Shown: positions 55,042 to 57,606 of the stretch, one piece after another | Numbering within the stretch: position 1 is the first letter of the stretch | How the letters are laid out: each line of letters starts with the position of its first letter | Assembly: GCA_030018455.1 (NCBI GenBank) | Contig: JASEFU010000002.1 | Coordinates: 269,480-333,479, forward strand | Length of the DNA stretch: 64,000 bases | Source: Dehalococcoidia bacterium | GTDB lineage: Bacteria > Chloroflexota > Dehalococcoidia > DSTF01 > JALHUB01 | Reading direction: 5' to 3' | Notes under the pieces: model-generated | What the model was told of the DNA's origin: nothing | What the model saw: the letters and a program-made list of their open reading frames with translations, nothing else | Databases searched by the model: none | Position numbers and translations under genes: made by a program

Positions 55042-56532
55042 CTACGCCTGCCCCAGGCGTTCTCTCAGCAGGCTGTTCACCAGATCAGCGTTCGCGCGAC
55101 CCTTCGTCTCCCTCATGACCTGCCCGACAAGGAAGCGGACCGCTTCCGTCTTCCCCGACCGGTAGTCCTGGACAGCTTTCGGATTGGCCTCCAGTATTCT
55201 GTCCACTATAGTCGAGATTTCGTCGGCGCCGCTGATCTGTGTGAGGCCCAGCTCTTCCACCAGCACGCGCGGGCTCTTGCCCGTCTCAAACATCTTCTCA
55301 AAGACGGTCTTGGCGCTCCTTCCGCTAATGGTGCCGTCTTCGACCAGGGTAATCATATCATAAAGGTCTTGCGGTTCAATCTTGGACTGATCGATTTCGA
55401 TTCCAAGAGAATTGAGCAGGTGCATGAAATCGCCGAGTATCCAGTTGGTCAGCGACTTTGCGCGTCGTCGCAGCGTTTCCGGCGGAGCGTCCTTGAGTGG
55501 CGCCAGCGCCGCGTCCAGATAATCGGCGCGCGGCCGCGTTTCCGTCAGCAGGCCCGCTTCGTACTCGGTGAGGCCATACTGCTGCATGAAGCGCTGCTTG
55601 CGGGCGTCGGGCAGCTCCGGCAGGCGGGTGCGGATTGCCTCGACATAATCGCGATCGAGCCGCAGCGGTGGTAAATCGGGCTCAGGGAAGTAGCGGTAGT
55701 CGTGGGCGTACTCCTTGGTGCGCTGCGGCACCGTCTTCCCCTGCTCCTCCAGCCAGCCGCGCGTCTCCTGGGGCAGGCGCCGGCCCCTCTGGAGAAGCTC
55801 GCGTTGCCTCTCCACCTCGAAGCTGAGGGCGCGGAAGACGGCGCGAAAGCTGTTCATGTTCTTGACTTCGACCTTGGCGCCGAGCTCGGTCTCCCCCACG
55901 GGACGGAGGCTGATGTTGGCGTCGCATCGGAAGCTGCCCTCTTCCATGTTGGCGGTGCTCACGCCGATGTAGCGCAGGATCTGTCGCAGCTTCACCAGAT
56001 ACTGCCGCGCCTCTTCCGGGGAGCGCATGTCCGGCTCGGAGACGATCTCCATCAGGGGCACGCCGGCGCGGTTAACGTCGATGAGGCTGTAGGTCTCGCC
56101 CGCTTCGTTCTGGCGGTGCAGCAGCTTCGCCACGTCCTCTTCGAGGTGGACGCGGGTGATCCCGATGCGCTTGCGGCCGCCGTCGAGGTCGATTTCGAGC
56201 CAGCCGTTGCGAGAGAGGGGCATATCGTACTGGGAGATCTGGTACCCCTTCATGAGATCGGGGTAGGGGTAGTTCTTTCGGTCGAACTTGGAGTACTCGG
56301 GGATTTCGCAGTTGAGGGCGAGGGCGGTCATGATGGTGTACTCGACCGCCTGCTGGTTGATGACGGGCAGGACGCCCGGCATGCCGAGGCAGATGGGGCA
56401 GACGTGCGTATTGGGGGGTGAGTCGGCGTAGTCGGCGCTGCAGCGGCAGTACATTTTGCTTCGTGTGGAGAGTTGTACGTGCACCTCCAGCCCGATCACC
56501 GTCTCGTACTCAACCTGCGTTTTGGTCGTCAC
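55042..56532 (-). CDS. gatB: Asp-tRNA(Asn)/Glu-tRNA(Gln) amidotransferase subunit B
   Basis: ...YETVIGLEVHVQL...CPICLGMPGVLPV... Start is set at the GTG at 56532 (MTTKTQVEYE...). The upstream extension is rejected. Confidence 0.88.
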   Translation of the reverse strand: MTTKTQVEYETVIGLEVHVQLSTRSKMYCRCSADYADSPPNTHVCPICLGMPGVLPVINQQAVEYTIMTALALNCEIPEYSKFDRKNYPYPDLMKGYQISQYDMPLSRNGWLEIDLDGGRKRIGITRVHLEEDVAKLLHRQNEAGETYSLIDVNRAGVPLMEIVSEPDMRSPEEARQYLVKLRQILRYIGVSTANMEEGSFRCDANISLRPVGETELGAKVEVKNMNSFRAVFRALSFEVERQRELLQRGRRLPQETRGWLEEQGKTVPQRTKEYAHDYRYFPEPDLPPLRLDRDYVEAIRTRLPELPDARKQRFMQQYGLTEYEAGLLTETRPRADYLDAALAPLKDAPPETLRRRAKSLTNWILGDFMHLLNSLGIEIDQSKIEPQDLYDMITLVEDGTISGRSAKTVFEKMFETGKSPRVLVEELGLTQISGADEISTIVDRILEANPKAVQDYRSGKTEAVRFLVGQVMRETKGRANADLVNSLLRERLGQA

Positions 56533-56584: not shown

Positions 56585-56724
56585 TGGTGCCGGGGGTGGG
56601 AATCGAACCCACCCGCCTGCCGGCAGGCAGGCAAGCCGCGAGGCCAGCGGATTCTAAGTCCGCCGCGCCCGCCTGCCTGCATCCAGGTCTGCGAATTCCG
56701 CCATCCCGGTTCGCTTGTGCCTTT
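56585..56724 (-). pseudogene. Degenerate tRNA-Leu-like module (copy 1). The acceptor stem is broken (A1/A7 opposite C72/C66), the anticodon loop CTTAGAA gives UAG, and the D-loop and variable-arm insertions are GC-rich.
   Basis: It shares the exact 28-nt 3' end, anticodon stem and variable-arm base with tRNA-Leu(UAA) at 57181-57267. About 31 nt are inserted in the D-loop and about 22 nt in the variable arm (GCAGGCAGGCGGG motifs). Confidence 0.6.
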
Positions 56725-56859
56725 CTAAGAAAAAACCTTCCGGCTCGGCGGTTTGTGGTGAACGCGAGAGCCCGTCTCCAAACGCTCACGTCCCCAGCCG
56801 GTGAGGCCGACATAGAGTCCACCGTCGCGCAGGCTCCTGAGCACGTACACGTAAAACAT
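56725..56859 (-). pseudogene. Truncated GIY-YIG nuclease-like ORF (44 codons; UPF0213/YhbQ-like N-terminal motif only), copy 1
   Basis: MFYVYVLRSLRDGGLYVGLTGWGRERLETGSRVHH... matches the GIY-x10-YIG plus Arg motif. It lacks the downstream catalytic Glu region, so it is a fragment. Confidence 0.55.
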
Positions 56860-56882
56860 GTTGCCTGCGTTCTCAGCACGAT

Positions 56883-57022
56883 TGGTGCCGGGGGTGGGAA
56901 TCGAACCCACCCGCCTGCCGGCAGGCAGGCAAGCCGCGAGGCCAGCGGATTCTAAGTCCGCCGCGCCCGCCTGCCTGCATCCAGGTCTGCGAATTCCGCC
57001 ATCCCGGTTCGCTTGTGCCTTT
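56883..57022 (-). pseudogene. Degenerate tRNA-Leu-like module (copy 2)
   Basis: Identical to copy 1. Confidence 0.6.
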
Positions 57023-57157
57023 CTAAGAAAAAACCTTCCGGCTCGGCGGTTTGTGGTGAACGCGAGAGCCCGTCTCCAAACGCTCACGTCCCCAGCCGGT
57101 GAGGCCGACATAGAGTCCACCGTCGCGCAGGCTCCTGAGCACGTACACGTAAAACAT
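57023..57157 (-). pseudogene. Truncated GIY-YIG nuclease-like ORF, copy 2
   Basis: Identical to copy 1. The ORF-track 61-aa version extends spuriously into the tRNA-Leu. Confidence 0.55.
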
Positions 57158-57180
57158 GTTGCCTGCGTTCTCAGCACGAT

Positions 57181-57267
57181 TGGTGCCGGGGGTGGGAATC
57201 GAACCCACAAGGCCGCGAGGCCAGCGGATTTTAAGTCCGCCGCGTTTACCGGTTTCGCCACCCCGGC
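57181..57267 (-). tRNA. tRNA-Leu (anticodon UAA), 87 nt including the encoded CCA
   Basis: GCCGGGGTGGCGAAACCGGTAAACGCGGCGGACTTAAAATCCGCTGGCCTCGCGGCCTTGTGGGTTCGATTCCCACCCCCGGCACCA. Acceptor stem 7 of 7, anticodon stem GCGGA/TCCGC, loop CUUAAAA, long variable arm, T-loop TTCGATT. Confidence 0.85.
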
Positions 57268-57332: not shown

Positions 57333-57406
<74 letters not shown>

Positions 57407-57424
57407 GCACGTCTTCCTTTGCGC

Positions 57425-57509
57425 TGGTGCCGAGGAGGGGATTTGAACCCCTACGCCCGAAGGCACGGCCCCCTCAAGACCGCGTGTCTGCCTATTCCAC
57501 CACCTCGGC
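57425..57509 (-). tRNA. tRNA-Leu (anticodon GAG), 85 nt with encoded CCA
   Basis: GCCGAGGTGGTGGAATAGGCAGACACGCGGTCTTGAGGGGGCCGTGCCTTCGGGCGTAGGGGTTCAAATCCCCTCCTCGGCACCA. Long variable arm, loop UUGAGGG. Confidence 0.8.
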
Positions 57510-57529
57510 CGCCGCTATTCCTGGATTGT

Positions 57530-57606
57530 TGGCAGGAGTGGAGGGATTCGAACCCCCGACCGGCGGTTTTGGAGACCGCTGCTCTGCCAGACTGAGCTAC
57601 ACTCCT
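57530..57606 (-). tRNA. tRNA-Trp (anticodon CCA), 77 nt with encoded CCA
   Basis: AGGAGTGTAGCTCAGTCTGGCAGAGCAGCGGTCTCCAAAACCGCCGGTCGGGGGTTCGAATCCCTCCACTCCTGCCA. Anticodon loop CUCCAAA. Confidence 0.85.

Follow-up and report, generated by a model that had tools for sequence, protein, structure and literature searches.

A probable fossil array of a minimal GIY-YIG nuclease and tRNA-copy cassette beside tRNA-Leu(UAA) in a Dehalococcoidia bacterium

We analysed a 64,000-nt stretch of the genome of a Dehalococcoidia bacterium (assembly GCA_030018455.1, contig JASEFU010000002.1, positions 269,480 to 333,479 of the forward strand; hereafter the window), in which a tRNA-Leu(UAA) gene is directly followed by two identical tandem units of 298 bp. 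The 596 bp of extra DNA in these units are probably two dead, internally deleted copies of a selfish cassette that joins a minimal GIY-YIG nuclease gene to a copy of a tRNA gene. As far as sequence comparison goes, the cassette family is a Slx1/UPF0213-like nuclease gene, with a catalytic domain only, lodged between two copies of one tRNA gene. Insertion at the tRNA gene is polymorphic among relatives, the cassette is bounded by tRNA sequence, the tRNA copies are mosaic, head-to-tail arrays recur, and the copy in the window has decayed. A first-pass annotation, made from the sequence of the window alone, had named a remnant of a tRNA-targeting GIY-YIG mobile element as one of three possible readings, and this reading is supported by relatives with an empty site, by full-length homologues at the same locus and by the same architecture across phyla.

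Tandem Repeats Finder (TRF) detected a single array in the window, at 56585-57208, with a period of 298, 2.1 copies and 100% matches. By string comparison, unit 1 (57180 to 56883, minus strand) and unit 2 (56882 to 56585, minus strand) are the same letter for letter. The order on the minus strand is tRNA-Trp, Leu(GAG), Cys, Leu(UAA) at 57267-57181, unit 1, unit 2, a 52-nt leader and gatB. The perfect 298-bp duplication 3' of an intact tRNA-Leu(UAA) that had been described at first was thus confirmed, the tRNA itself being called by ARAGORN and by Rfam at 64.5 bits. The same holds for the division of each unit into three parts with a tRNA-like module of about 140 nt: a unit is composed of a 23-nt spacer, a 44-codon open reading frame (ORF) with its stop codon, and a 14-nt gap plus a 126-nt tRNA-like module. 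The cassette begins exactly at the 3' end of tRNA-Leu(UAA) and is terminated by a 28-nt copy of that end. No further copy of the unit or of the nuclease family was found elsewhere in the 64-kb window.

Descent of the 44-codon ORF from a GIY-YIG gene is supported by a family profile, by blastp and by unit-to-unit DNA alignment. With Pfam PF01541 alone the ORF remained below the threshold (15.1 bits against a cut-off of 22.6, E = 0.03, profile positions 1-29 of 78), and NCBIfam gave no match for it. However, a hidden Markov model (HMM) built from 61 full-length relatives matches both units at an independent E-value of 6e-9 over profile positions 5-40, and blastp of the ORF against individual relatives gave about 1e-9 to 3e-11. 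The GIY-YIG motif that had been read in the ORF therefore reflects homology, whereas the accompanying claim that the C-terminal half is missing did not hold. In a MAFFT alignment the first 60 nt of the ORF are conserved, and the N-terminal 20 residues are identical at 18/20 positions to copy 1 of locus L183, an intact 80-aa relative. Compared with the units of L183, L006 and L008, the ORF has a deletion of ~61 nt and another of ~27 nt further on. Between the two deletions lies ccggaaggttttttcttagaaaggc, a decayed form of the stretch coding for REKYYKSG, which contains the stop codon of the ORF. Judging from this alignment, the C-terminal half of the nuclease gene is present, though decayed, rather than simply absent. 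The catalytic set is incomplete: Y5, Y16 and R26 are kept, 'QHN' has become 'ETG', and the Glu-bearing REKYYK is out of frame and decayed. Because two already decayed copies are identical, the duplication is later than the inactivation. The family HMM matches the window only at the two units, so there is no intact family member within the 64 kb. A word-indexed protein search with the 44-aa peptide gave no matches; the sole match in an exhaustive HMMER search, P0121, was rejected as an unrelated 1684-aa repeat protein with a low-complexity alignment.

The tRNA-like module repeats the last 28 nt of tRNA-Leu(UAA) exactly, and 33 nt of the anticodon arm and the variable-arm base with a single change, TAA to TAG. 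Acceptor positions 1 and 7 are altered (aCCGGGa against GCCGGGG) and an A now stands opposite a C at both, pairs 1-72 and 7-66 are broken, and the D loop has 31 extra nt. The exact repeat, the UAA-to-UAG change and the broken pairs had all been noted before, and repeat search and alignments reproduced them. The two insertions reported in the module, of about 31 nt in the D loop and about 22 nt in the variable arm, are real as well; what had been missed is that both are copies of one palindrome, CCTGCCTGCCGGCAGGCAGG, which they match at 16/20 and 19/20 positions, respectively. The D-loop insertion aligns column for column with an intact palindrome in the D loop of the L183 pseudo-tRNA (MAFFT), and the 19/20 copy is located directly 5' of the 28-nt repeat. 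Over its first 23 nt, the pseudo-tRNA agrees with the tRNA-Leu allele of L004 at 19/23 positions, with that of L183 at 18/23 and with the resident tRNA at 15/23, while the sequence from the anticodon arm through the 3' end resembles the resident tRNA-Leu(UAA). This is modest evidence that the pseudo-tRNA may be a mosaic, as expected of an incoming cassette recombining with the resident gene. ARAGORN called four tRNAs, none of them within the units, and the Rfam tRNA model had no match in the units even at E <= 10. The sole Rfam match of the module was to tRNA-Sec, at 28.3 bits against a gathering score of 47 and without the acceptor stem. The module is therefore not a canonical tRNA-Leu(UAG), and no Rfam family explains it. 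A group I intron in tRNA-Leu(UAA), already doubted in the first-pass annotation, was ruled out: the anticodon loops are uninterrupted in the units, and no group I intron was matched there in an Rfam scan at E <= 10.

At the same locus in other Dehalococcoidia, the insertion is present in some genomes and absent from others. In one relative with 96% GatB identity, represented by three independent sample assemblies (L001-L003), the same neighbours and the four tRNAs are found without the 596 bp, and gatB begins 55 nt past the CCA end of tRNA-Leu(UAA). The site is likewise empty in a 79% relative (L004/L005). A three-way alignment with L001 and L004 gives a clean 596-bp insertion in the window, and the gatB leader after unit 2 is homologous to the sequence 3' of the tRNA in these empty-site relatives. 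Single-copy or full-length GIY-YIG versions beside tRNA-Leu exist at the occupied sites, L006/L007, L008, L182 and L183. In L006/L007 (78% GatB identity, 833-kb contig), tRNA-Leu(UAA) is followed by two units, each with an intact GIY-YIG gene. The unit consists of a 16-nt spacer with a Shine-Dalgarno sequence, the GIY-YIG gene and a pseudo-tRNA that ends in the same tRNA 3' end; spacer and gene are then repeated, and the second gene, whose ORF is 98 aa as called, overlaps the start of gatB. Unit 1 of L006 is 375 bp long and unit 2 ends early, inside the pseudo-tRNA; over the shared ~280 nt the two are ~96% identical, with 10 substitutions and one indel. Since these units have diverged, the tandem duplication there is real and older. 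L008, from another Dehalococcoidia metagenome-assembled genome (MAG), is a mirror image: positions 1-24 of tRNA-Leu, CCTGCCTGCCGGCAGGCAGG, tRNA positions 24-35 and 5 nt are followed by an 80-aa GIY-YIG ORF, the intact tRNA-Leu(UAA) and gatB. In L182 the order is the 3' half of a GIY-YIG gene, a 5' tRNA fragment that carries the palindrome, a complete GIY-YIG gene and an intact tRNA-Leu; gatB lies a further 1.1 kb downstream. In L183, tRNAs for Leu(GAG), Gly and Cys are followed by at least 2.1 tandem units of ~300 bp, each composed of a 5' tRNA-Leu fragment, the palindrome and an 80-aa GIY-YIG gene, and the end of the contig falls inside the palindrome. On the contig of L006, upstream of the intact tRNA-Leu(UAA), there are also two tandem 75-bp units without a nuclease gene (L007 2372-2521), each made of tRNA positions 1-22, the hairpin CCCGCCGGAGGCGGG and ~30 nt. 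These solo repeats of partial tRNA and hairpin stand on the opposite side of the tRNA that bears the GIY-YIG array.

Pfam identifies the full-length relatives as genuine GIY-YIG domains (E = 1e-16). The intact proteins measure 78-98 aa, and the single Pfam domain spans nearly the whole protein, with no sequence-specific DNA-binding domain joined to it. Among solved structures, UPF0213 proteins (phmmer E = 1.6e-7 and 2.4e-6) and SLX1 (1.7e-3) come closest. The UPF0213 proteins (EF2693 and BH0048; PDB 1ywl and 1zg2), Bacillus subtilis YazA and the 'Slx1 cluster' (PMC1564403), all stand-alone prokaryotic GIY-YIG proteins, share the same minimal domain with the window family. The 2006 survey of the GIY-YIG superfamily by Dunin-Horkawicz et al. 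makes no mention of linkage to tRNA genes, of partial tRNA duplication or of the palindrome (PMC1564403). When back-translated motifs of the L006 protein were searched in species-representative genomes, 19 loci were obtained. Their hosts include Dehalococcoidia, Patescibacteria, Peribacteria, Gracilibacteria, Saccharibacteria, Bacteroidota (among them the isolate Pedobacter cryotolerans), Ignavibacteria, Omnitrophota, Elusimicrobia, Planctomycetia and Gammaproteobacteria. At 13 of the 19 loci a tRNA gene on the same strand starts 0-50 nt past the ORF or overlaps its end (195 nt at one locus); given a density of about one tRNA gene in 20-60 kb, the number of such cases expected by chance is well below one. 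The tRNA is for Leu, Phe, Arg, Asn, Gln, Ile, Glu or Tyr. At two more loci a tRNA lies directly upstream of the ORF.

Upstream of the ORF, 12 of these 13 loci have a partial copy of the downstream tRNA, which covers its 5' part up to position 11-48 and is exact or nearly so. In most cases this copy is broken up or followed by the palindrome or by a different GC-rich hairpin. The interrupting sequence is the palindrome itself at L008, L009, L010 and L019, a near variant of it at L011 and L012, and a different GC-rich hairpin at L016, L018, L022, L024 and L025; such hairpins also stand in the solo repeats of L007 and L013. L014, from a gammaproteobacterial MAG, has the polarity of the window: the intact tRNA-Leu(GAG) comes first, and further downstream lie a GIY-YIG gene and then a tRNA copy made up of 'ttggtaga', the palindrome and the remainder of tRNA-Leu to its 3' end. 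One tRNA is intact wherever the whole array is visible. The architecture of the family is thus one intact tRNA beside others that are truncated and interrupted by a palindrome, with the nuclease gene and tRNA copy often arranged head to tail. In L098 and L104 the intact tRNA and the partial copy show differences to either side of the palindrome, so the two copies have separate origins. No description of the arrangement of partial tRNA, palindrome and GIY-YIG gene was found in the literature searched, which left most subscription journals outside its coverage.

Several further observations concern the family. In L013 2700-3320 (Ignavibacteria) and L021 2800-3350 (Neomarinimicrobiota) the same theme recurs with other hairpins (GTCCGCC-TTG-GCGGAC in L013), in the order tandem partial tRNA copies, intact tRNA, GIY-YIG gene and then another hairpin-bearing tRNA copy. 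Homologues of the L008 protein are mostly on contigs shorter than 3 kb, as expected of a repeat that breaks assemblies. Public gene calls for P0124, P0125, P0127, P0155 and P0160 are extended N-terminally through the palindrome ('LPAGRQA') and C-terminally through the 5' end of tRNA-Leu ('VPGWRNW'). Annotated phage and plasmid relatives are distant (~40% identity), and the one inspected, from Rhizobium phage RHph_Y65, has no adjoining tRNA.

The palindrome also occurs on its own. Exact CCTGCCTGCCGGCAGGCAGG is present in at least 120 metagenome stretches and 35 viral contigs. In the window it was found with up to three mismatches in the two units only, against a chance expectation of 0.01. The site statistics that follow refer to sites among the matches listed (loci L026-L180; for example L042 3376-3395, and four sites each in L085 and L166), whose loci range from 29% to 71% in G+C. 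A small GIY-YIG gene lies within 300 nt of 10/169 sites and a tRNA within 600 nt of 12/169, while 7 of the 19 gene loci have the palindrome or a near variant. When ORFs within 2 kb of the sites were clustered, the small GIY-YIG family was the only one that recurred across unrelated loci (7 loci). Sites are depleted in long ORFs, 60% of them against 87% of controls falling inside a stop-to-stop ORF of at least 100 aa. An uninterrupted 'empty' junction was found within 400 nt of 10/168 sites and 0/775 control positions; with so few sites involved, the idea that the palindrome is always paired with a nearby uninterrupted target copy was rejected. The palindrome was also rejected as the core of a longer element, as its flanks are not conserved, and existing hairpin loops are not preferred as sites (4.8% against 3.4%, for stems of 5 bp or longer). 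The searched literature, with the coverage given above, yielded no description of the palindrome string.

Individual sites illustrate how the palindrome sits in tRNA genes. In L119 621-670 and L124 572-620, two copies lie 10 nt apart in the D arm of one partial tRNA, an arrangement that suggests repeated insertion into one small target. L170 2239-2330, on a viral contig, is a tRNA-Met with the palindrome in its variable loop that ARAGORN still recognises; this tRNA may be functional, with a long variable arm derived from the palindrome. In L060 150-460, a tRNA-Ala flanked by a 12-nt inverted repeat is nested in another tRNA-Ala-like gene, which is split in the anticodon region and has the palindrome in its T arm; no nuclease gene is present.

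The closest known parallel is SegB of phages T4 and T6, a free-standing GIY-YIG homing endonuclease encoded in a tRNA gene cluster, which promotes inheritance of its region (PMC2330249; PMC13096335). SegB cuts inside tRNA genes at RAWTSGAAC, the T-arm motif GTTCGAAT, and T6 depends on it to amplify in tandem a 718-bp unit that contains tRNA-Tyr and a C-terminally truncated segB and is joined by microhomology (PMC13096335). In both systems a nuclease gene lies beside tRNA genes, and the unit of the window is likewise a tRNA copy plus a truncated nuclease gene, arranged head to tail. Its 2 x 298 bp are joined at the 28-nt tRNA 3' end, and the repeat boundary falls exactly at the T stem. The differences are that SegB is a phage protein, whereas the intact relatives of the window family are 78-98 aa, bacterial-chromosomal and made of the catalytic domain only; that the extra tRNA copies are functional in the SegB case but disabled in the window family; and that a conserved palindrome is part of the window-family unit.

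Two other kinds of element bear a partial resemblance. Integrase elements with attachment (att) sites in tRNA genes also insert there, restore the tRNA with a segment of their own and leave tRNA sequence as a direct repeat at the far end; the window family, in contrast, has no integrase, a unit of only 0.3 kb, duplication of either tRNA end, tandem arrays and a palindrome in the tRNA copy. In REP/RAYT systems, as here, a short GC-rich palindrome is dispersed, its only recurrent neighbour is a small nuclease-type gene flanked by the palindrome, and different gene lineages go with different hairpins. However, RAYTs are Y1 (HUH) transposases rather than GIY-YIG proteins, and REPs are lineage-specific, whereas CCTGCCTGCCGGCAGGCAGG is identical across phyla. 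A palindrome is usually found next to the gene, whereas the gene is remote from most palindromes, an asymmetry that is also seen in REP/RAYT; the link between gene and palindrome is statistical only.

The following course of events may explain the locus. An active cassette would have entered by recombination in which tRNA-Leu sequence provided the homology, probably following a break made by the nuclease within the tRNA gene or close to it, by analogy with the cutting of the T-arm motif by SegB. Repair of such a break through tRNA homology could copy the cassette in, or could misalign sister copies so that units are added or removed. The nuclease gene would then have decayed through two deletions, with loss of its His-Asn and Glu regions. 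The dead 298-bp unit would have been duplicated later, when direct repeats of 28 nt or more underwent unequal exchange or slippage; alternatively, an intact family member encoded elsewhere in the genome could have made a break in trans. The palindrome might serve as a substrate for a structure-directed minimal nuclease, as an operator, or as a barrier that shortens the homology between tRNA copies, or it might be an independent rider. At present, the units in the window are most likely inert, non-functional passenger DNA, and the function of the locus is carried by the intact tRNA-Leu(UAA).

Several points weigh against a selfish cassette. A precise deletion between 28-nt repeats would leave an identical empty site, so that gain in the window lineage is the parsimonious direction and not a proven one. 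The case for a foreign allele in the 5' part of the pseudo-tRNA comes to 19 against 15 matches of 23. The nuclease activity, target site and mobility of the family are predicted. SegB-type homing endonucleases pair the nuclease domain with a separate DNA-binding region, and the small family is without the DNA-binding domain by which typical homing endonucleases recognise their sites. Nor does the intact tRNA beside an active cassette show any visible protection from being cut, a feature that a simple homing model leaves unexplained.

A further such point is that the perfect identity of the units is also expected from assembler error at a repeat. The cassette could be real and its second copy, or the exact copy number, an artefact of a short-read assembler that looped a 298-bp graph cycle wrongly. 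The 100% identity in the window, set against the diverged tandem units of L006 (10 substitutions and one indel), is in line with this, and so is the tendency of the family to break assemblies, seen in the short contigs of most relatives and in the L183 contig that ends inside the palindrome. We nevertheless consider such an artefact unlikely. The path from the palindrome through the 28-nt repeat to the spacer requires adjacent units or a circular unit; as this path is present, the assembler met at least one junction between units. Moreover, the tandem arrays of L006, L182 and L183, whose copies have diverged, are real. It is very improbable that the module is a functional RNA, either an unusual tRNA-Leu(UAG) or a new tRNA-derived structured RNA freed by RNase P/Z from the tRNA-gatB transcript, although its tRNA parts are all recognisable and in order and its last 28 nt are intact up to the CCA. 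A variable loop can tolerate a palindrome, to judge from the tRNA-Met of L170, and the fold of the module is somewhat more stable than those of shuffled sequences (z = -2.7). However, the surplus stability is due to pairing between its two palindrome copies, and the module, with two acceptor pairs broken and 31 extra nt in the D arm, is called neither by ARAGORN nor by the Rfam tRNA model. It aligns with decayed parts of cassettes, and the adjoining ORF is decayed too. The equivalent tRNA copies of relatives end at differing points (anticodon loop, D arm, position 48), so there is no common conserved RNA. The suggestion of a novel tRNA-derived structured RNA, made in the first-pass annotation, therefore found no support.

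The direct repeat of the tRNA 3' end that bounds the insertion resembles tRNA-borne att sites, and the units might accordingly be what is left of an att duplication after an integrase island or prophage in tRNA-Leu was almost wholly deleted. The probability of this is close to negligible: the ORF list of the window contains no integrase gene in or beside the insert, the unit carries only the 44-codon ORF, and the pseudo-tRNA holds 5' acceptor and D-arm sequence, which is absent from att duplications. Many family members, in addition, duplicate the 5' part of the tRNA and not the 3' part, and the units are homologous over their whole length to integrase-free cassettes of 300-375 bp that combine a GIY-YIG gene with a tRNA copy. 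These results agree with the initial rejection of an integrase att duplication. We give hardly any credence to adaptive amplification that raises the supply of tRNA-Leu, as in the escape of T6 from Septu. Head-to-tail repeats do have a formal likeness to the SegB-driven tRNA-Tyr/segB repeat, and in form the earlier idea of a tRNA-gene amplification intermediate stands. However, the amplified copies are pseudogenes with a changed anticodon, broken stems and palindromes, and only one intact tRNA-Leu(UAA) is left; because the extra copies are disabled, tRNA dosage is not raised.

For the host genome, the selfish cassette would be a harmless fossil between the tRNA array and gatB. Its 44-codon ORF and tRNA-like modules should be treated as pseudogenes in annotation, and ORFs called in relatives run through the palindrome and the tRNA. 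tRNA-adjacent free-standing GIY-YIG genes and nuclease-driven amplification of tRNA plus nuclease units are already known from T-even phages. The wider family with its palindrome appears to be undescribed. Its pattern is that of minimal GIY-YIG genes directly upstream of a tRNA, after a palindrome-interrupted partial copy of the same tRNA, often in tandem, and the fossil draws attention to a 20-nt palindrome whose sequence is the same in distant lineages. The pattern raises the hypothesis that UPF0213 and the Slx1 cluster may include selfish nucleases associated with tRNA genes that drive local amplification, as a cellular counterpart of phage SegB. More tentatively, and with the balance of probability against it, the small GIY-YIG genes and CCTGCCTGCCGGCAGGCAGG or other lineage-specific hairpins could together form an undescribed cross-phylum mobile system, of which the window would hold an array fossil. 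In such a system a minimal Slx1-like structure-directed nuclease would act on hairpin or cruciform DNA and lodge between tandem tRNA copies. The palindrome would disable all tRNA copies but one, the array would expand head to tail, and the palindrome would also spread alone in a REP/RAYT-like manner.

Table 1. Features of the tRNA-Leu(UAA)-gatB region, in coordinates of the window
Feature	Position	Strand	Basis or remark
Intact tRNA-Leu(UAA), encoded CCA	57181..57267	-	ARAGORN; Rfam tRNA 64.5 bits; last of the 4-tRNA array
28-nt direct repeat bounding every unit, the tRNA-Leu(UAA) 3' end	57208-57181	-	Repeat coordinates
Unit 1, 298 bp: spacer, decayed GIY-YIG ORF, pseudo-tRNA-Leu	56883..57180	-	TRF, repeat search, string identity
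Unit 2, 298 bp, identical to unit 1; gatB leader directly after	56585..56882	-	TRF; alignment with L001 and L004
GIY-YIG pseudogene copy 1 (44 codons and stop)	57023..57157	-	Pfam PF01541, family HMM, MAFFT, protein alignment
GIY-YIG pseudogene copy 2, identical to copy 1	56725..56859	-	String identity; family HMM
Pseudo-tRNA-Leu copy 1, 126 nt, putative mosaic, two palindrome copies inserted	56883..57008	-	Alignments; not called by ARAGORN or Rfam tRNA
Pseudo-tRNA-Leu copy 2, identical to copy 1	56585..56710	-	String identity
Palindrome at the variable arm/T stem junction, unit 1, CCTGCCTGCCGGCAGGCGGG (minus), 19/20 to CCTGCCTGCCGGCAGGCAGG	56910..56929	.	Mismatch search
Palindrome of unit 2 matching the 56910..56929 copy of unit 1	56612-56631	.	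Mismatch search, <=3 mismatches
Decayed D-loop palindrome, unit 1, CCTGGATGCAGGCAGGCGGG, 16/20	56966..56985	.	MAFFT alignment
Decayed D-loop palindrome, unit 2	56668-56687	.	Equivalent of the unit 1 copy
gatB, GTG start at 56532, downstream of the insertion	55042..56532	-	Pfam GatB_N / GatB_Yqey
Upstream array Trp, Leu-GAG, Cys, conserved in relatives	57333..57606	-	ARAGORN; loci of relatives

The genes flanking the region (Table 1) are gatB and a gene of the beta-lactamase family. GatB of the window is 100% identical over its full length to P0001, a Dehalococcoidia MAG protein at NCBI from a 360-kb contig. Just upstream of tRNA-Trp, at 57647-57619 on the minus strand, there is a promoter-like site composed of TTGACG, 17 nt and TATACT with an upstream TG. 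Since no terminator-like site was found on the minus strand between the tRNA array and gatB, the units are probably co-transcribed with the tRNAs and gatB from this promoter-like site.

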